A DNA stretch of 52,997 nt from a virus. Lineage: Duplodnaviria; Heunggongvirae; Uroviricota; Caudoviricetes. The translations under genes were made by a program, and so were the position numbers. The stretch spans positions 1 to 52,997 of IMG/VR virus record IMGVR_UViG_2585427779_000013; one strand, 5' to 3'. Under the pieces are notes generated by a model. That model was given only the letters and a program-made list of their open reading frames with translations. It made no database searches and had not been told where the DNA came from. Below, one piece after another: positions 17,258 to 43,105 of the stretch (the stretch's first letter is position 1; each line of letters begins with the position of its first letter).

Positions 17258-17436
17258 AAAACGAAGTTAAAGATCTGCAAATAGATATTCAGCGCGACGA
17301 GCGTGATTTAGAGACGGTCCGACAAATCCAGGCTTTCCACATGCGCGAATTACTTGCGCTGAAAGAGTTCGAAAGAAAGCTGGTGCAATCCATTTCTGAT
17401 CGTAAACGGCTGGCGGCACGTTATGAGGGCAAATAA
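17254..17436 (+). CDS. hypothetical coiled-coil protein (60 aa)
   Basis: ATGA-coupled ORF between rusA and Q-like gene. Confidence 0.4.
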   Translation: MKNEVKDLQIDIQRDERDLETVRQIQAFHMRELLALKEFERKLVQSISDRKRLAARYEGK

Positions 17437-18164
17437 TGAATTTAGAATCCATTCTAAAATTCCACTTTCCTAAATCACCGCGATTATCTGACGAAAGCCG
17501 GGGCACGTCCCCGGACGCTCTTAATACGACGGATGCGCTAACAGCTGCGGGTATGGCGCAATCGCGCGTAGAGCTTGGCTATAGCGCTTTTTTGGGAAAG
17601 ATGGAGCTATCACAAGCCGAAAAACATAAGGCCGTAGTTTTGCTTACAGAGCGTTTAAGGGCTATGGCAAAAGATTATGAATACGTTATGGAACTGGACG
17701 AGGCCAAACGCAATGATCTCATTATTCTTGTTGCCGTTTTCGCGTTTCGGGATTATTGCCAGAGTGCGGCGACCGAAAAAGTTTGCCCTAAGTGCGGCGG
17801 TAACGGGCTTTCACCACATCCATATTGTGAGTACGCATCGACAGTTTGCTCGCGGTGCGGCGGCAAAGGCTACGTTAAAAACCATTGCCAGCGGTGCAAG
17901 GGTCGTGGCGAAGTACCGGATAAAGCAGCCAGCGAGGCGGCGGAAATGCCAGTGTTCAAAACATGCCAGCACTGCGGCGGGCGCGGGTACTCGCGTTTCC
18001 CTGTAGATCTTGTCCGGCAGGCGGTTAATCAGCTTGTTTTCCCGGTAAGCCGATCAACATGGTGGAAGAAATACCGGGCTTTCTATGAAGACGCCATTGC
18101 TGAATTGTTCAAAGAAGAGGCGCGGGCTGACAACGAAATTAAACGAGTGACGCGGGGTGAATAA
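17436..18164 (+). CDS. putative late antiterminator (Q-like) with DnaJ-type zinc finger
   Basis: 242 aa; four CxxCxGxG repeats (CPKCGGNG, CSRCGGKG, CQRCKGRG, CQHCGGRG); located directly after ninG-rusA where lambdoid phages place Q. Confidence 0.45.
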   Translation: MNLESILKFHFPKSPRLSDESRGTSPDALNTTDALTAAGMAQSRVELGYSAFLGKMELSQAEKHKAVVLLTERLRAMAKDYEYVMELDEAKRNDLIILVAVFAFRDYCQSAATEKVCPKCGGNGLSPHPYCEYASTVCSRCGGKGYVKNHCQRCKGRGEVPDKAASEAAEMPVFKTCQHCGGRGYSRFPVDLVRQAVNQLVFPVSRSTWWKKYRAFYEDAIAELFKEEARADNEIKRVTRGE

Positions 18165-18364
18165 TGGATAAGCTGGAAATAAACGATCAGTTTGCCGTTA
18201 TCTTATTTGAAGATAAAACAGGCGGCGCATGGTGTAAGAAAGTCACTGGCGCGGAAGCGCGTTTAATATTGGGTATGGCAAGCGCGTTAAACGAAGGTGA
18301 ATTGCCAGCCGTGCCAATTGAGCCAGTTCATATTTACGGACGGAGTAACGACAATGAAGCCTAA
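18164..18364 (+). CDS. hypothetical protein (66 aa)
   Basis: ATGA-coupled ORF. Confidence 0.4.
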   Translation: MDKLEINDQFAVILFEDKTGGAWCKKVTGAEARLILGMASALNEGELPAVPIEPVHIYGRSNDNEA

Positions 18365-18623
18365 ATTAAAGGAACATATATTTGCAAAGCTGGTTAATGA
18401 CCTGACATTATCTGCGCGGTTGTGTCGTGATACGCAACAATTAAGGGCGTGGATAGCAAGGGATTTAAGAAAATATATTGAACCAGGCAGGCCAGGCGGA
18501 GAAATCACGATGGACGAAGCCATCAAGCGCCGTTCGGCTGAATGGTCAGTAAGTAATACAGGATTAACCGGATACATCGAAGGCTATAACGACTGTTTAC
18601 AGGATCATGGCGATGGCAAGTAA
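18354..18623 (+). CDS. hypothetical protein (89 aa)
   Basis: ATG 18354 with GGAG RBS. Confidence 0.45.
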   Translation: MKPKLKEHIFAKLVNDLTLSARLCRDTQQLRAWIARDLRKYIEPGRPGGEITMDEAIKRRSAEWSVSNTGLTGYIEGYNDCLQDHGDGK

Positions 18624-18921
18624 AGATCTGCATTTAAACCTGAAAGGAGAATACTTTTACGCCATCCGGGCGGGAAAGAAGGTGGAAGAATACAGGCTTT
18701 ACAATGACTATTGGCGTAAACGCCTGGAAGGGCGGGAATATGAACGCCTGATCATTAAGCTGGGGTATCCAGCCAGCCACGAAGCGCACCGGATTATAAA
18801 CCTGCCTTATTTCGGGTACGAAGTAAAAACTATCACGCATCCATTATTCGGCCCTGATCCTGTTAAGGTATTCGCAATTAAGTGTGATGTGAATTGGATG
18901 TTAAGGTGGGGTGAGCAATGA
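18607..18921 (+). CDS. hypothetical protein (104 aa)
   Basis: ORF in packed accessory cluster. Confidence 0.45.
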   Translation: MAMASKDLHLNLKGEYFYAIRAGKKVEEYRLYNDYWRKRLEGREYERLIIKLGYPASHEAHRIINLPYFGYEVKTITHPLFGPDPVKVFAIKCDVNWMLRWGEQ

Positions 18922-19127
18922 AAAAAGCTGGCCTGTCAATTAGCCGTGTATTGTGCGGCGACGAAAACGAGATCCGCATAGAAATTAAATTTAGCATGGG
19001 TAAAGAGATAATTCTTTACACGACACCTGAAAACATGACGCTGGCGCTTACTGGTAAATCTGAAACGCCGTGCGACGTCCGGTTACGCAATATTGAAATT
19101 AAGGAATTAAGGAAGGGTGAAAAATGA
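18918..19127 (+). CDS. hypothetical protein (69 aa)
   Basis: ATGA-coupled ORF. Confidence 0.4.
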   Translation: MKKAGLSISRVLCGDENEIRIEIKFSMGKEIILYTTPENMTLALTGKSETPCDVRLRNIEIKELRKGEK

Positions 19128-19339
19128 AAAGTAACCGTAAACGCCTGGTAAGGGCGTATGATAAAGCATTAAAGGCTTTTGACGACCTGCGACACAATAA
19201 GCGCCAGCGCCGCAAATGGGCGCGTATGCTTGTTTATGAGTGGCATTATTCTGATGCTTTTATGGAAAGTGCGCCGCTATTAACACAAGAACAAGCCGAC
19301 GAAGTAGCTAACGATAACGTTTATTATATGATGTGGTGA
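19124..19339 (+). CDS. hypothetical protein (71 aa)
   Basis: ATGA-coupled ORF. Confidence 0.4.
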   Translation: MKSNRKRLVRAYDKALKAFDDLRHNKRQRRKWARMLVYEWHYSDAFMESAPLLTQEQADEVANDNVYYMMW

Positions 19340-19343
19340 TAAT

Positions 19344-19709
19344 ATGCAAATAATCATTGATTACCTTTGCCACGCTGCAAATACGCTTTTCGGTTTTTAT
19401 CAGCAACCATTCCTGAAAGAATGGGACGAAATGCTTAATGACATCCTCGACAAAGGATTAATAATGGAATTCGGGGAGCTAACAATCAAATTTAATTACG
19501 AAGGCAAAGAATATGACATATGGGTAGGCAACAGATGGTATTCATACGGGCATATTTATTCAATTGGCGGTAAATACATTAAACGAAGTCAGGAATTTAG
19601 ACCGCGCTTCCGCACAATGCGACGACTGCATGACCTGCATATGAAGATATTTGGAGATCAGGAAGCACGGGAATTATTCAAAATTTACGGGGATAAATCA
19701 TGGAGCTAA
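19344..19709 (+). CDS. hypothetical protein (121 aa)
   Basis: ORF in packed cluster. Confidence 0.45.
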   Translation: MQIIIDYLCHAANTLFGFYQQPFLKEWDEMLNDILDKGLIMEFGELTIKFNYEGKEYDIWVGNRWYSYGHIYSIGGKYIKRSQEFRPRFRTMRRLHDLHMKIFGDQEARELFKIYGDKSWS

Positions 19710-19930
19710 AAATCTGGCAGGCTATCGACGTAGTTGATAATGAATTAACAATGTTTGCCACTGACGGAAAACGCGTGGTGATCGCCACATGGACGCACAA
19801 CCATGATGATATTGTTTTTCGTCGCAAAGCTGCGGAATGGCTTTTCTCTGATGAAGGCTACACGATGAACATTGCACAGCTTGCAAGAATGAAGGATGAA
19901 AAGCTGGTAGACAGCTACACAACTGCATAA
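19700..19930 (+). CDS. hypothetical small protein (76 aa), member of apparent paralog family
   Basis: Shares a loose pattern (G..Y… D.G..W.F) with neighbouring small ORFs. Confidence 0.4.
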   Translation: MELKIWQAIDVVDNELTMFATDGKRVVIATWTHNHDDIVFRRKAAEWLFSDEGYTMNIAQLARMKDEKLVDSYTTA

Positions 19931-19940
19931 CGGGGTAAAT

Positions 19941-20174
19941 ATGCGTATTTATGAACACAAGCGGGATAAAACCCGCTTTTTTGTTCGTGCTGGCGTGGCG
20001 TACCAGTATCACGACTGCGGATATATTGAGGCGCTTGCTTACGACATGGATTTCGAACAAGAAAAAGAATGGTTTGACTTTAAGATTTACCGTAAGCGCA
20101 AGCCAACGCGTGACGAACGACACGCTATCCGGGACTTTTTAATCAGCATAGACCGCTGGGAGGCAGACGAATGA
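19941..20174 (+). CDS. hypothetical small protein (77 aa)
   Basis: ORF in packed cluster. Confidence 0.4.
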   Translation: MRIYEHKRDKTRFFVRAGVAYQYHDCGYIEALAYDMDFEQEKEWFDFKIYRKRKPTRDERHAIRDFLISIDRWEADE

Positions 20175-20398
20175 AAGTTAAATTCTTGCACGATCACGGA
20201 TACCCGTCATTGAAACAGGTTGTTGGTAAGGTCGTTAATGTCGTTCATAGCGATGATATTACTTGCATGATTAATGGTGCTGATCTCATTGCTGCTGGTG
20301 CTGATGACCATTACATCAATCCGGCGTGGTCGTATACGTTCAGCATGGGCGATTTCGTCGGGGACAAGGGGCGCGGGCTTGAGATTGTAGAGGATTAA
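20171..20398 (+). CDS. hypothetical small protein (75 aa)
   Basis: ATGA-coupled ORF. Confidence 0.4.
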   Translation: MKVKFLHDHGYPSLKQVVGKVVNVVHSDDITCMINGADLIAAGADDHYINPAWSYTFSMGDFVGDKGRGLEIVED

Positions 20399-20402
20399 CG
20401 GT

Positions 20403-20618
20403 ATGGACGTTTACGAAGATCTCTACCTACAGACCAATAGCCGCACTTTTTATTTTCTGAAAAGCGGCGTCGTATATCGCAGCGACGACGGGGTGATAAT
20501 GAAAGAGTGGTTATTTAAGCGTAAAGACCTACTCGAAGATCTGGTTTTTGCCGGGATATTTCGTAAACGTCCGGCTAACCTGGAAGAAGAAATGTTGATC
20601 GACGAGGTGTTAAAATGA
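20403..20618 (+). CDS. hypothetical small protein (71 aa)
   Basis: ORF in packed cluster. Confidence 0.4.
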   Translation: MDVYEDLYLQTNSRTFYFLKSGVVYRSDDGVIMKEWLFKRKDLLEDLVFAGIFRKRPANLEEEMLIDEVLK

Positions 20619-20860
20619 AAGTGAATTATTTCAGGGCAAAAGACAAGGCAACAGGAAAGCGGGTGGCTATCCTGGTTAATGAAGCAAATTATATGTTTGT
20701 TCTCCAGCCGTGGTGCATGGCTGACTATAACGATGATTATCGTCGTCACGCTGCGCGGCGGGCGGTCGGGATGAAAGGCTGGCAACCGCGCGACATGCTT
20801 AATTATTGCGACTGGAATCTGATAGCAAAATACACGGTAGATTATAAAGGGGTTTTCTGA
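20615..20860 (+). CDS. hypothetical small protein (81 aa)
   Basis: ATGA-coupled ORF. Confidence 0.4.
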   Translation: MKVNYFRAKDKATGKRVAILVNEANYMFVLQPWCMADYNDDYRRHAARRAVGMKGWQPRDMLNYCDWNLIAKYTVDYKGVF

Positions 20861-20862
20861 TT

Positions 20863-21078
20863 ATGTTTGCAAGATGCGTTTATTCTGACACTACATGCTT
20901 TACTACTGGCGAACTATATAGCGTTGATCTTCTTAATGGGTGCAAGCGCGGCGCGGGCGGTATTCATTATGTAAAAGATAATGATGGCGATGCGTGGCAA
21001 TTTTACGGCGATTACGCAAAAGGGTTTGTTAAGGGTAGTTTTGATAATCGTGTGATGGCGCGCTTTGTTAAGTGGTGA
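20863..21078 (+). CDS. hypothetical small protein (71 aa), paralog-like
   Basis: FTTGELYSV…DGDAWQFYGDY pattern recurs in neighbours. Confidence 0.4.
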   Translation: MFARCVYSDTTCFTTGELYSVDLLNGCKRGAGGIHYVKDNDGDAWQFYGDYAKGFVKGSFDNRVMARFVKW

Positions 21079-21087
21079 GGTGGTGTT

Positions 21088-21327
21088 ATGAGACGGAACC
21101 ATAGATACCAGTGCACATACTCACGATGCAGCGCGTTTTTTAAGAATGGCAAGATCTACGAAGTCGGCGCGGCATTGGTTGACGCAAAGGATCAGGAATA
21201 TATTCACGCCATTACTGACGACCAGGGCCAGTTATGGCGATTTTATAAGATGGGGTGTGGCACGGCGCTTGTTTATGCGCGTGCTGGTGGTGGTGCTTTT
21301 GCTGCGTTTTCGTATGTAGGGGTATGA
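21088..21327 (+). CDS. hypothetical small protein (79 aa), paralog-like
   Basis: FKNGKIYEV…DQGQLWRFYKMG pattern. Confidence 0.4.
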   Translation: MRRNHRYQCTYSRCSAFFKNGKIYEVGAALVDAKDQEYIHAITDDQGQLWRFYKMGCGTALVYARAGGGAFAAFSYVGV

Positions 21328-21548
21328 AAATGATTTTAACGTGTAACGAATCGGAATTGGGCTGTTTTGAGGAAGGCGTACAGTATACGGCTGAAAAACC
21401 GATGGGGTTGTCGCCTAAATTTCCGTTTATCGTCGTGACTGACACTTACGGTCACTTATGGTATGCAGAGCCGCTAGGCGGTATTGGTCGTTATGTTGTC
21501 CGTAGTTCGGATGGGGCGATGAAGGTTACTTTTACGGAAGAAGCATAA
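21324..21548 (+). CDS. hypothetical small protein (74 aa), paralog-like
   Basis: ATG overlapping upstream stop; FEEGVQYTA…YGHLWYAE pattern. Confidence 0.4.
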   Translation: MKMILTCNESELGCFEEGVQYTAEKPMGLSPKFPFIVVTDTYGHLWYAEPLGGIGRYVVRSSDGAMKVTFTEEA

Positions 21549-21646
21549 ATGTGATCTACCCTTCAAAGTTTACAGAATGGCATTGCTCTGGCGGTGCCAT
21601 TTTGTTATAAAGAAGCTGAAGAGAGAACGATGCGGAGGGTAGAAAA

Positions 21647-21919
21647 ATGAAACGCTGGATTAACGAAGAAACAGAGGCCCGCTTCAATGCAATTTGGGAT
21701 CTGATTGAAAAAGAGGACGGCGTTTCTAGTCCCTACCTGAACAATCTTGAGTTCCACTATGTAGAAGCGATGAACGCAGAGCATGACCACGAAGGCGGTG
21801 CCGATGAATTCGCTAAAAAATACGGCTTCGATGATGCAAACCATATGATTAACAACGTGGTGATGCAGGCAGAGGAAGACTACGAATGCAAATCACTTGA
21901 ATTCGCACGCATGGCATAA
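21647..21919 (+). CDS. hypothetical acidic protein (90 aa)
   Basis: GGAGGG RBS; preceded by motif pair and a 20-codon upstream ORF. Confidence 0.45.
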   Translation: MKRWINEETEARFNAIWDLIEKEDGVSSPYLNNLEFHYVEAMNAEHDHEGGADEFAKKYGFDDANHMINNVVMQAEEDYECKSLEFARMA

Positions 21920-21929
21920 GGGGGAAAAC

Positions 21930-22070
21930 ATGAACGCTAACGCTAAATATCCGGCCTGGGTCTTTGAACTATACGCCCGCTATTTTGAAGAACTGGCACC
22001 AGGTGAAGAAGCATTAAGCATTGACGAATACGCGGAGTGTTTAGGATTCAAGGGGGACGAAGAAGAATAA
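21930..22070 (+). CDS. small acidic protein (46 aa)
   Basis: AGGGGGAAA RBS then ATG; not in track. Confidence 0.35.
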   Translation: MNANAKYPAWVFELYARYFEELAPGEEALSIDEYAECLGFKGDEEE

Positions 22071-22113
22071 AACACGGGGCCGGATGGCCCCATCAAATCA
22101 GAAGGGTGTAATT

Positions 22114-22413
22114 ATGAAAAGCGCTAAATTCATTGCGTGCTGTTTTGTTGAAGTCCCTAACGATGATGTTTTCTGCAATTATGAATTTAAAGACAGTTTA
22201 GGCAGATCTCATGTTGTTGTTGGTAAGCGCGGCGACTGGTTATATATCACTGATGGAGACAGGATCTTCACTAAAAACCAGTTGTTAAGAATAAAGGCAG
22301 AAAATGATGAAATACCAGTAGGTAATATGGGGATTATGAATTATCACGCTGGTTTATCGTTAAAGCACGATGCGGTAAATAAAGCGCGTAGCTTACCTGG
22401 TGCGGAGTTTTAA
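22114..22413 (+). CDS. hypothetical protein (99 aa)
   Basis: ATG 22114 with GAAGGGTG RBS. Confidence 0.45.
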   Translation: MKSAKFIACCFVEVPNDDVFCNYEFKDSLGRSHVVVGKRGDWLYITDGDRIFTKNQLLRIKAENDEIPVGNMGIMNYHAGLSLKHDAVNKARSLPGAEF

Positions 22414-22436
22414 TTTATTACGAAGGGGAATAATAA

Positions 22437-22760
22437 ATGTCTAAATTTATCAGCGTTAAGGTTTTTCGTGGCAATTTTCCAGAAGATAAAGAAATTGGAC
22501 AATTCGCAGGTGAACGTGGAGTATGTTTCCGTGTAGCTACTGAAGACGATGCGCACGTTAAATGCTTTCACGTATCTGAACCGCCTTTTAATGCAGAACA
22601 TCTTGAAGACCTGAATAGAATTAAAAGCCTTATTTTTGCCTATCTGGCGTTCCCTGGCATAGCTAATGCTGATGTGGGATTGGTTGGCGCTGAACTGGTT
22701 GCGGAATACAAAATGACTGAAGGTGTAACAGGGGGAATTGACATTGAGCGCATCAAGTAA
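22437..22760 (+). CDS. hypothetical protein (107 aa)
   Basis: ORF in packed cluster. Confidence 0.45.
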   Translation: MSKFISVKVFRGNFPEDKEIGQFAGERGVCFRVATEDDAHVKCFHVSEPPFNAEHLEDLNRIKSLIFAYLAFPGIANADVGLVGAELVAEYKMTEGVTGGIDIERIK

Positions 22761-22995
22761 GCTATACAAGATCAGGTGTAAAGGCGAATACCCTGGCTTT
22801 ACGATTGGTTGCGAATACCTGGGCCACATTGGGTACGGCCCTTTCGGTGAGTTGGGGATGAGCACGCTGGACGATGACGGCGACAGCCGGACGCTTGATC
22901 TTGATTCTGATGATTTCGAATACATCCCGCCAGTCACTTACCGTGACGTCGATGATTTCCTGGCTGAACAAGAAGACGATGAAGAGGATGATTAA
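22738..22995 (+). CDS. hypothetical protein with acidic C-terminus (85 aa)
   Basis: ORF; C-terminal EQEDDEEDD. Confidence 0.4.
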   Translation: MTLSASSKLYKIRCKGEYPGFTIGCEYLGHIGYGPFGELGMSTLDDDGDSRTLDLDSDDFEYIPPVTYRDVDDFLAEQEDDEEDD

Positions 22996-22997
22996 CT

Positions 22998-23138
22998 ATG
23001 GATGACGAATACGTTAATAATTTTATTGTTATGTTTCTTAGTGAAAACTGGCGCATGTTTGAACATTATTGTTTTGAGCGCGGGGAAAATGCTGAAGAAA
23101 TATATCAATATTTAGGCGGGGAGAAAGAGGATGATTGA
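22998..23138 (+). CDS. small protein (46 aa)
   Basis: ATG ORF not in track; overlaps next start. Confidence 0.3.
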   Translation: MDDEYVNNFIVMFLSENWRMFEHYCFERGENAEEIYQYLGGEKEDD

Positions 23139-23328
23139 ATGCCTTATTATTGCGGTTATTCTCCTTTACCTGGCTGGCGTAATTTTAATGGGCGCTTTTC
23201 AGAAAGCTGTTGATAGTGACGGCGTCATTTGGTTCGAGCTAGTCTTCTGGCCTTTCATTACGATATACGCTTTCACTGATGCTATGCGCATTAACATCAT
23301 GCGGGAAATTAAGGAGCGCAAAAAATGA
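23131..23328 (+). CDS. small membrane protein (65 aa)
   Basis: Two predicted TM helices (MIECLIIAVILLYLAGVILMGAF…). Confidence 0.45.
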   Translation: MIECLIIAVILLYLAGVILMGAFQKAVDSDGVIWFELVFWPFITIYAFTDAMRINIMREIKERKK

Positions 23329-23495
23329 TTGAAGACGGTATCTATTTGCACAAGTTATTTGACATCGCTTATCTGGTTAAAGGTGACAAGGTGATGATTC
23401 AGAATCCAGAAAAACCATACTGGGAATCAAGCGAGATGGATCGGTGGCATATGCAAATGTTGCTTGATAATGGCCTGATATACAGAAAGCAGTAA
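23325..23495 (+). CDS. hypothetical protein (56 aa)
   Basis: ATGA-coupled ORF ending just before candidate late promoter. Confidence 0.35.
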   Translation: MIEDGIYLHKLFDIAYLVKGDKVMIQNPEKPYWESSEMDRWHMQMLLDNGLIYRKQ

Positions 23496-23503
23496 AGCCG
23501 TAT

Positions 23504-23532
23504 TTGTGGGTCGAAAACAAACGGATTAAAAT
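23504..23532 (+). promoter_or_regulatory. candidate late promoter (PR'-like)
   Basis: TTGTGG, 17-bp spacer, TAAAAT; about 30 nt upstream of a strong terminator and 70 nt upstream of the holin start. Confidence 0.4.
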
Positions 23533-23560
23533 ATTACCTAACAATGCGAAACTGTAACTA

Positions 23561-23586
23561 CCCGGCCCCGTGCCGGGTTTTTGCTT
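23561..23586 (+). terminator. rho-independent terminator (tR'-like) upstream of lysis cassette
   Basis: GC stem CCCGGC-CCCGT-GCCGGG followed by TTTTTGCTTTGTT. Confidence 0.65.
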
Positions 23587-23602
23587 TGTTGGAGGAAAAT
23601 CT

Positions 23603-41669: not shown

Positions 41670-41855
41670 TTAATCCTCCTGATCGTTCTCAAATGTGCCA
41701 TCTATAAATTTTTGAAGCCCGGCGATAAGTTGCGTCGCCTGCGATTTGTCAATTACGAGGGTGTCAGTCCCCATGAGTTCGGTTATCCATAGCCGACCAT
41801 CCTCATCAAGATCTAACCTAACTCCGTAACATAACTCTGTTTCGTCAATAATCAT
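41670..41855 (-). CDS. moron acidic small protein (61 aa)
   Basis: ORF 2 nt upstream of membrane protein gene (coupled pair). Confidence 0.45.
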   Translation of the reverse strand: MIIDETELCYGVRLDLDEDGRLWITELMGTDTLVIDKSQATQLIAGLQKFIDGTFENDQED

Positions 41856-41964
41856 TTTTCCTCCTATAATCTTCCGTTACGTGCTACGTAACCACTGCCG
41901 AACATCACCAACCAAATATTCCAGATCTCCCGCCAGGTGAATTTATCGTCCTCCATGTCCCACC

Positions 41965-42560: not shown

Positions 42561-42914
42561 ATGCCGGAAGTGTTCAGATGGACGCCGCAACGAAGCTACA
42601 GCGTGACCAGGGAGCCGGACGTATCAGTTGTTAAGCTGGGCGATGGTTATGAGCAAAGACAGGTTAAAGGTATCAACCCGTTACTTGATAGCTACACCCT
42701 GGTGTTTAAGGGCAGTAGCGCCGGATGTGGTGATGGTGAAAACGTAGCAATCCAGGCGGAAGCATTCTTGAGGGCGCGCGGCGCGGTCGAGGCTTTTTAC
42801 TGGTCGCCGTCGATGGATAACGTGCAAAGGCTTTTTGTTTGCCGTAGCTGGAGCATGACTAAAGACGGTCCGCTATACACGCTAAATGCAACATTTGAGC
42901 AAGTTATTAATTAG
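42561..42914 (+). CDS. minor tail protein M (lambda gpM-like)
   Basis: 117 aa; resemblance to lambda gpM family by recall; followed later by L, K, I, J in lambda order. Confidence 0.65.
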   Translation: MPEVFRWTPQRSYSVTREPDVSVVKLGDGYEQRQVKGINPLLDSYTLVFKGSSAGCGDGENVAIQAEAFLRARGAVEAFYWSPSMDNVQRLFVCRSWSMTKDGPLYTLNATFEQVIN

Positions 42915-42922
42915 GGGGGGAT

Positions 42923-43105
42923 ATGCCTTATTTTTGTGTAGTGGAGCGCACTGGCGCTTTTACATTGTTCGCCGACTATGAAATTAATGATCTTACTGTC
43001 CGGGCTGATAACGGTGAGACGTGGTATCTTCATGATATGGGTGATGGATATATCGGCTGTACGACTTGGGATGGCAAAGAAGTAGCATTTCTATCCTACG
43101 ATTAA
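42923..43105 (+). CDS. hypothetical protein (60 aa)
   Basis: Short ORF after gpM, before bidirectional terminator. Confidence 0.35.
   Translation: MPYFCVVERTGAFTLFADYEINDLTVRADNGETWYLHDMGDGYIGCTTWDGKEVAFLSYD

Follow-up and report, generated by a model that had tools for sequence, protein, structure and literature searches.

Background

Blocks of small accessory genes are found in lambdoid phages at characteristic places: the nin region of phage lambda lies between P and Q, and the moron regions of Stx phages lie between Q and S. Here we describe a block of comparable kind, and a family of small proteins encoded within it, in a 52,997-nucleotide stretch of Caudoviricetes DNA (IMG/VR virus record IMGVR_UViG_2585427779_000013, positions 1 to 52,997), the whole of which is referred to below as the window. 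As in the lambdoid accessory blocks, small, non-essential, co-directional open reading frames (ORFs) are densely packed beside Q and vary between relatives. Unlike the lambda nin region, the block in the window follows Q and apparently precedes the late promoter. No nin gene homology was seen in the analyses of the block, which included no search aimed at nin genes.

For the family itself, SH3-like small beta-barrels (the RecD SH3 domain (5LD2), eukaryotic SH3 domains and the PliC lysozyme inhibitors) are among the closest known systems. Among its structural relatives, only Gp54 of phage Bas11 (PDB 9AXB; Pfam PF25180, 'Phage antiviral trigger protein Gp54') has a solved structure. Gp54 is recognised by the bacterial immune sensor CapRelSJ46 (Zhang et al., Nature 2024, PMC11578894). 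Its rare barrel, of near-orphan topology, was described in 2024, and even close Gp54 homologues of other phages fail to trigger CapRel (PMC11578894). Gp54 is a single-copy protein of a virulent Drexlerviridae phage, whereas the family described here occurs as three to five tandem paralogues in temperate phages of the mEp-immI group. The phage in the window is affiliated with this group of temperate Escherichia coli phages (described in PMC11893012), and its closest relatives are mEp044 and MagusPhagus.

A family of diverged paralogues

Three consecutive genes on the + strand of the window encode members of one family: A1 (20863-21078, 71 amino acids), A2 (21088-21327, 79 amino acids) and A3 (21324-21548, 74 amino acids), the ATG of A3 overlapping the stop codon of A2 (ATGA). 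We are highly confident that these are true homologues and form a real paralogous family. To judge from its sequence, a further gene, A7 (22744-22995, +, 83 amino acids), is probably a fourth member. Each family start is preceded by a Shine-Dalgarno-like sequence. The sequence signature consists of a [C] strand, F-x-x-G-x-x-Y, h-x-h-x-D-x-x-G-x-x-W-x-F and a C-terminal strand ending in F. A Pfam scan of all ORFs of the block returned nothing for the family, and the block products are labelled 'hypothetical protein' throughout the related phage records.

An all-against-all BLASTP comparison of the 22 products of the block gave a sole clearly significant pair, A1 and A2 (30% over 46 amino acids, E 1.3e-5); A2 and A3 were paired at E 0.07. 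The set was enlarged with the equivalent blocks of six sister phages to 128 proteins in 28 orthologue clusters, including related clusters that are not in the window (4603 (A4), 4329 (A5) and 4825 (A6) of MagusPhagus, and 3339 of mEp010). Profile-profile comparison with hhalign pairs A1 with A2 at 89% probability (E 2e-6), A1 with A4 at 91% and A7 with A4 at 33%. Nine sequences representing six subfamilies align collinearly along their entire length, with F13, G16, Y19 and F68 (A1 numbering) invariant. In an alignment of 36 sequences, invariance is left at F13 and Y19 alone, and G16 is nearly invariant. Identity between the paralogous proteins is 23-33%.

Profiles from which one subfamily had been omitted were searched against 712 sequences, 606 of which were six-frame stop-to-stop segments of the window included as decoys. 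The omitted subfamily was the best non-training match for A1-A6, that is, for six of the seven subfamilies (E 9e-9 for A1, 1e-10 to 2.3e-10 for A2, 1e-9 for A4, 2.5e-4 for A5 and 1.2e-4 for A6). Among the A3 orthologues, the MagusPhagus variant, which has 24% pairwise identity to A1 and about 54% to A3 of the window, was recovered at E 1.7e-4, and an orthologue sharing 91% identity with the window protein at E 1.6e-3; the longer stop-to-stop segment containing A3 in the window reached 0.065. A7 was not the top match (E 0.06-0.19). The family (A1-A7) is defined by the collinear core F-x-x-G-x-x-Y ... D-x-x-G/D-x-x-W/Y ... F and by recovery with profiles of this kind. A further profile was built from outgroups only (Bas11 small ORFs and metagenomic tandem-domain proteins) and included zero sequences of the mEp group. 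In its ranking, 18 family members precede the first decoy (E 0.36), with E 1.2e-8 for A2, 8.8e-4 for A1, 1e-4 for A4, 3e-3 for A5, 0.02 for A3 (0.04 for the window A3 segment) and 0.02-0.06 for A7. The pattern F..G..Y.{8,24}D..[GD]..[WY] is present in A1, A2 and A3 only of the 606 six-frame segments, compared with a mean of 0.005 in shuffles, a post hoc count since the pattern was derived from A1-A3 themselves.

The PHROG classification independently agrees with the pairing of A1 and A2. A1 falls in phrog_31142 (E 1.7e-43 over residues 1-71 of 71), to which A2 shows a partial cross-match (E 1.3e-5, residues 4-49 of 71) and A3 no match; 18 of the 36 aligned family members match it. For A1, A2, A3 and A7, comparisons of orthologues at dS up to 0.6 give ratios of nonsynonymous to synonymous substitution (dN/dS) of 0.07-0.27 (A2, 0.07-0.16; A7, 0.12-0.27), the exception being one near-identical A1 pair (0.52 at dS 0.02). 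The orthologues of all four genes are under purifying selection, which, with the Shine-Dalgarno-like sequences, supports their being real genes.

The first-pass annotation had proposed, by eye, that several consecutive products in 19700-22413 are paralogous, and had cited the ORFs at 20863, 21088 and 21324 as examples. These three exist as described, on the + strand and with Shine-Dalgarno-like sequences upstream. The pairwise and profile comparisons that it recommended bear out its paralogy call for them, directly for A1 and A2 and through the leave-one-out profiles for A3. The family is nevertheless smaller than the interval implied, consisting of three consecutive genes and one probable outlier. 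The ORFs at 19700, 20171, 20615, 21647, 21930 and 22084 never showed family similarity above decoys in BLASTP, hhalign or profile searches, and an extension of the family to them was rejected.

A7 lies outside that interval. Its membership is marginal: across profile searches its E-values range from 0.02 to 0.19, which tells against its inclusion, yet it always ranks above or beside the best decoy. The family motif (YKIRCKGEYPGFTIGCEY...DDDGD) lies in the N-terminal half, and the last 40 residues form a strongly acidic tail (net charge -17; isoelectric point of the protein 4.05). The probable start is TTG at 22744 or 22738. The frame of the N-terminal 40 residues is open and conserved in five phages, for which GenBank annotates shorter products. 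A7 matches phrog_25234 over its full length. Its acidic tail includes DSDDFEYIPP and recalls the acidic C-terminal tip of SSB or DNA-mimic proteins. The layout of Bas11 gp61 (DYPGFIAGKTY...DEDGD followed by an acidic end) resembles that of A7, whose N-terminus looks half-barrel-like.

Predicted fold and comparison with Gp54

A confident structure model was obtained for A1, the best-sampled member. It is a closed six-stranded barrel, and its top match in a fold search is a monomeric barrel. On the strength of this model it is probable that a family protein is a single all-beta domain of about 70-80 amino acids, folded as a six-stranded barrel in which strands 1 and 2 are joined by a long loop. 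The prediction agrees with the Gp54-type fold (PDB 9AXB), a six-stranded beta-barrel of about 65-70 residues that likewise has a prominent loop at this position. A Foldseek search of BFVD returned many small uncharacterised proteins, several per phage, with template modelling (TM) scores of about 0.5-0.78; most of them are presumably from T1-like (Drexlerviridae) phages, as read off the phage names.

Several results weigh against a close relation to Gp54. The alignment behind the confident model pools all subfamilies. The structure prediction that had been suggested as a check for a shared fold succeeded for A1, but a separate model of A3 from its own shallow alignment is of low confidence (predicted local distance difference test score, pLDDT, 66.6) and, with the same strand order, gives no Gp54 match. 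PF25180 does not match A1, A2 or A3 at E up to 1, nor any of the 36 family members at E up to 10 (gathering score 27 bits; Bas11 Gp54 itself scores 116 bits). With hhalign, the family profile and a 17-sequence Gp54 profile align at 0.2% probability (E 0.34). The best hit of a Gp54 hidden Markov model (HMM) in the window database is to a non-member (E 0.31), and semiglobal BLOSUM62 alignments of the family with Gp54 give z-scores of at most 2 relative to a shuffled control. HMMER, hhalign in local and in global mode, and semiglobal alignment with shuffling each gave a negative outcome, and a link to Gp54 at the level of sequence was rejected. What we claim from the model is similarity of fold, not family membership, and convergence on the Gp54 fold is a possible alternative to homology.

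Relatives in other siphophages

Weaker similarities extend to small domains of other siphophages. Searched with the family HMM, the ORFs of Bas11 (MZ501085.1), the source phage of Gp54, include gp71 (E 4e-4), the C-terminal domain of gp48 (8e-4), the N-terminal domain of gp79 (1e-3), gp41 (0.03) and gp61 (0.085). At least five small ORFs of Bas11 other than Gp54 match the profile in this way, and gp48 apparently has two tandem barrel-like domains. A by-eye equation of the N-terminal domain of gp48 with Gp54 was not supported by a Gp54 HMM search. The family profile also detects the metagenomic proteins P0088 and P0094 (two and four tandem copies of the domain, respectively), and these in turn strongly match phrog_4927, phrog_10169 and DUF6501. 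Conversely, a profile of outgroup sequences finds window proteins at E 1e-8 to 0.03. The 36 members give weak PHROG matches (E 0.001-0.05) to phrog_4927 (14 of 36), phrog_16833 (8 of 36) and phrog_9122 (5 of 36), and the pooled alignment has the pattern K-C ... F/L-T-x-G-K-x-Y ... D-D-x-G.

These small, uncharacterised domains (phrog_4927, phrog_9122, phrog_16833, phrog_10169, P0094, P0088 and the Bas11 ORFs; more weakly DUF6501 and DUF7244) have the motif order and length of the window family and, like it, occur in several copies per phage, the links being weak (E-values of 1e-3 to 1e-8). In some of these proteins the domain is repeated in tandem, whereas the genes in the window encode single domains. 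The window proteins are not members of DUF6501 (PF20111) or DUF7244 (PF23896): one of the 36 touches DUF6501, at E 0.048, and the link to these two families runs solely via P0094 (41 bits, for a cutoff of 23.8). By these resemblances the window genes fall within a loosely defined superfamily of small barrel domains, several copies of which are present per siphophage genome. It is conceivable, although we consider it unlikely, that the Gp54-type barrel is the prototype of a large, fast-diverging, multi-copy superfamily spanning temperate mEp-immI and virulent T1-like phages, whose arrays would act as a battery of binders, each neutralising a different defence or host factor and collectively the targets of sensors like CapRel.

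A variable slot and the history of the family

In a synteny table of seven phages the varying content is confined to one slot, directly after a conserved gene (20615-20860, +) that is present in all seven, immediately precedes the A-family array and has no similarity to the family. The slot holds A1-A2-A3 in the window and in mEp044, A5-A4-A6-A2-A3 in MagusPhagus, A1-A3 in mEp010, A4 in mEp554, A1 together with an A2 fusion in mEp013 and no family gene in mEp021. Eight subfamilies are combined in different ways among the sister phages, with zero to five members each.

No DNA repeats of 14 nucleotides or more link the paralogues beyond chance matches, and the longest exact DNA match between A1 and A7 is 8 nucleotides. 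A recent duplication at the DNA level was therefore rejected. Together with the protein identity of 23-33%, the lack of a linking repeat indicates that the duplications are old. Variation in the slot looks like cassette exchange and not like recent duplication in place. The local gene-family expansion suggested by the first-pass annotation stands in so far as the paralogues are real, but the duplications are old and the slot content appears to have been exchanged as cassettes.

Natural in-frame chimeras of different block genes are numerous in the databases searched. For example, mEp013_60 (L005:6698-6994) consists of A2 joined at a GGG run to a 60-amino-acid protein of a second family (B; see below), P0059 and P0061 are A1 or A5 fused to the acidic tail of A7 exactly at DDxGD, and P0065 is A1 fused to the C-terminus of A3; P0018, P0019, P0034 and P0056 are further chimeric proteins. 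These chimeras point to frequent deletion and recombination within the array. They also corrupt single-linkage clustering: a cluster uniting A2 with the 60-amino-acid proteins was discarded as an artefact of the natural deletion fusion mEp013_60.

The distribution of the family is narrow. A family search gave 72 clusters, and each one with a source name comes from E. coli or its phages. There were 39 matches at E of at most 1e-3 among 1.84 billion representative proteins, and the region is present in 27 of 5426 complete E. coli genomes (coverage 23-99%). A megablast search with 18164-23495 matched just seven phage records, at 80-90% identity and all of the mEp-immI group (mEp044, MagusPhagus, mEp010, mEp554, mEp013, mEp021 and mEp515).

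The accessory block and its transcription context

On its upstream side the block is bounded by the gene of the Q antiterminator (17436-18164, +; PF03589, Antitermination protein Q, E 8e-32), and genes for holin and lysozyme follow on its downstream side, so that its earlier placement between a Q-like gene and the lysis cassette is correct. The number of small ORFs in 18164-23495, previously put at roughly 25, is 22, all of them tiling the + strand. Besides the PF03589 match, the Q protein contains four CXXCXGXG repeats, which match the central zinc-finger domain of DnaJ.

A 107-bp intergenic region before the holin gene (23496-23602, +) is a candidate Q-dependent late promoter and terminator. 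Its conservation across the seven phages exceeds that of the flanking coding DNA. Within it lie a -10-like hexamer (TAAAAT), the element AACAAT and, at 23560-23578, a strong intrinsic terminator. The layout can be likened to the lambdoid pR'/tR' arrangement; this pR'/tR'-like module sits 5.3 kb downstream of Q. The terminator occupies the position of TERM_5 in the mEp021 record, and the t5 terminator is listed as experimentally demonstrated (PMC11893012). From these sequence elements we suggest that the region includes the late promoter. If so, the 22 small genes would lie between Q and the late promoter and would be expressed with Q from the N-antiterminated early transcript. It counts against this scheme that the promoter assignment depends on consensus-like hexamers and conservation.

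Other open reading frames

A second paralogous family includes a 56-amino-acid protein (MIEDGIY..., 23325-23495), which is related to a 60-amino-acid tandem neighbour (HMM E 1e-8 to 1e-4) that is present in four sister phages (L002:7145-7327) and missing from the window. The N-terminus of the 121-amino-acid product of 19344-19709 weakly matches this neighbour (E 1e-3 to 0.03). The ORFs 19941-20174 and 20403-20618 may form a third paralogue pair. They are the second-best BLASTP pair among the 22 block products (E 0.015), and after addition of 59 homologues they are reciprocal best matches at E 0.1-0.5, with an hhalign probability of 1.6%; 12 columns are invariant across both orthologue sets, and their relationship is unproven. 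Mass spectrometry of purified virions detected mEp021_41, the orthologue of 20403 in mEp021 (PMC11893012). The window product differs from it at the C-terminus and is shorter (71 compared with 82 amino acids).

The ORF 21647-21919 (90 amino acids) matches phrog_7287 and has no counterpart in the six sister phages compared. It contains a 45-nucleotide direct repeat (21769-21813 and 21862-21906, 71% identical) and is preceded by a 99-nucleotide gap, where mEp044 has a predicted terminator. A GC-rich hairpin at 22074-22093 overlaps the first ATG of the 22084 ORF. Since the orthologues of this ORF are 99 amino acids long, its true start is probably the ATG at 22114, and the hairpin would then be intergenic. 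Elsewhere in the window, 42911-43105 (+; ADNGETWYL) and 41673-41876 (-; DEDGRLWI) carry a partial motif, with family-search E of 0.03-1, just short of significance. The second of these was rejected as a member, the match being limited to the D-x-x-G-x-x-W hairpin (DEDGRLW).

Proposed function and alternatives

The explanation that we favour, with moderate confidence when taken as a whole, is that A1-A3 and probably A7 are anciently diverged paralogues with a Gp54-like barrel, maintained in a recombination-prone slot downstream of 20615. The proteins would be made together with Q from the delayed-early (N-type antiterminated) transcript. Each paralogue, small and soluble, may bind a target of its own among the proteins of the host or of host defence, and binding would lead to counter-defence or host takeover; as a side effect, abundant small barrels could trigger CapRel-type sensors. 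Small, soluble, single-domain barrels with charges ranging from +3.6 to -17 fit the idea of diversified protein binders. Presence/absence variation, purifying selection and a fold shared with a protein sensed by a defence system fit that of counter-defence or host takeover. A role as protein-binding accessory or counter-defence factors is accordingly put forward tentatively, as a possibility short of probable. Against it must be set that we infer the function and the timing of expression entirely.

Two alternatives concern the family as such. The resemblance could be due to chance or composition among unrelated small ORFs without common ancestry, for which one could cite the low pairwise identity, the lack of a significant pairwise match for A3 (hhalign of the shallow subfamily profiles gives 6%) and the post hoc nature of the motif test. 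For A1 and A2 this is largely refuted by significance in three methods (BLASTP, PHROG cross-match and hhalign). More generally, A1-A6 are each the top match of a profile built without their own subfamily in the presence of 606 decoys from the same genome, the outgroup-only profile recovers all subfamilies ahead of decoys, and the sequences align collinearly from end to end with conserved core positions; chance is hardly credible. The D-x-x-G-x-x-W/Y motif might otherwise mark single beta-propeller blades that oligomerise into a propeller, making the proteins kin of the large repeat proteins and designed 'Cake' propellers that top exhaustive and PDB sequence searches. These hits were rejected as summed motif-level matches: significance arises only by summing 5-24 near-identical repeats, and no single repeat reaches significance (6-7 bits per domain, i-Evalue 64-390). 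No individually significant blade match is seen for the window proteins, which are single-copy. The match also leaves out the conserved first and last strands, and the confident model is a closed barrel, with a monomeric barrel and not a blade as its top match. We consider propeller blades very unlikely.

Other alternatives accept the family and differ as to its role. Small beta-barrels of the SH3, Tudor or KOW type can be imagined as nucleic-acid-binding or regulatory proteins, or the products might be minor virion components. The virion-detected protein (mEp021_41 type), however, is outside the family, and mEp021 is viable without any member, which argues against an essential structural or regulatory part. 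The spread of charge among the paralogues would be unexpected for a shared nucleic-acid ligand, and PHROG labels are unverified annotations. Such a role is improbable. Somewhat less probable again is that the genes are neutral cargo, small ORFs hitch-hiking in a recombination hotspot. The absence of the family from mEp021, the range of zero to five copies in sister phages, the many truncated, frameshifted and chimeric versions in databases and the rarity of the region in complete E. coli genomes (27 of 5426) would all be expected of cargo. Purifying selection on each member tested (one near-identical pair excepted), the conservation of start signals and translational coupling, and the persistence of the domain across distant phage groups would not.

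Significance

Entries for these proteins already exist in databases, under hypothetical proteins and PHROGs; the new element is their recognition as one paralogous family that occupies a variable slot and has a structural link to Gp54. As it stands this is a modest and mostly ordinary accessory family with a narrow distribution and one notable structural link. Should the predicted fold prove right, the Gp54 barrel would not be confined to a few Bas-type phages: it would be a common component of phage accessory regions, with each genome carrying several diverged versions. The variable slot provides a natural series of otherwise near-identical phages with 0, 1, 2, 3 and 5 copies, in which copy content can be related to host range. 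Tests of the family could show what Gp54-like proteins do for the phage, a point left open by PMC11578894.

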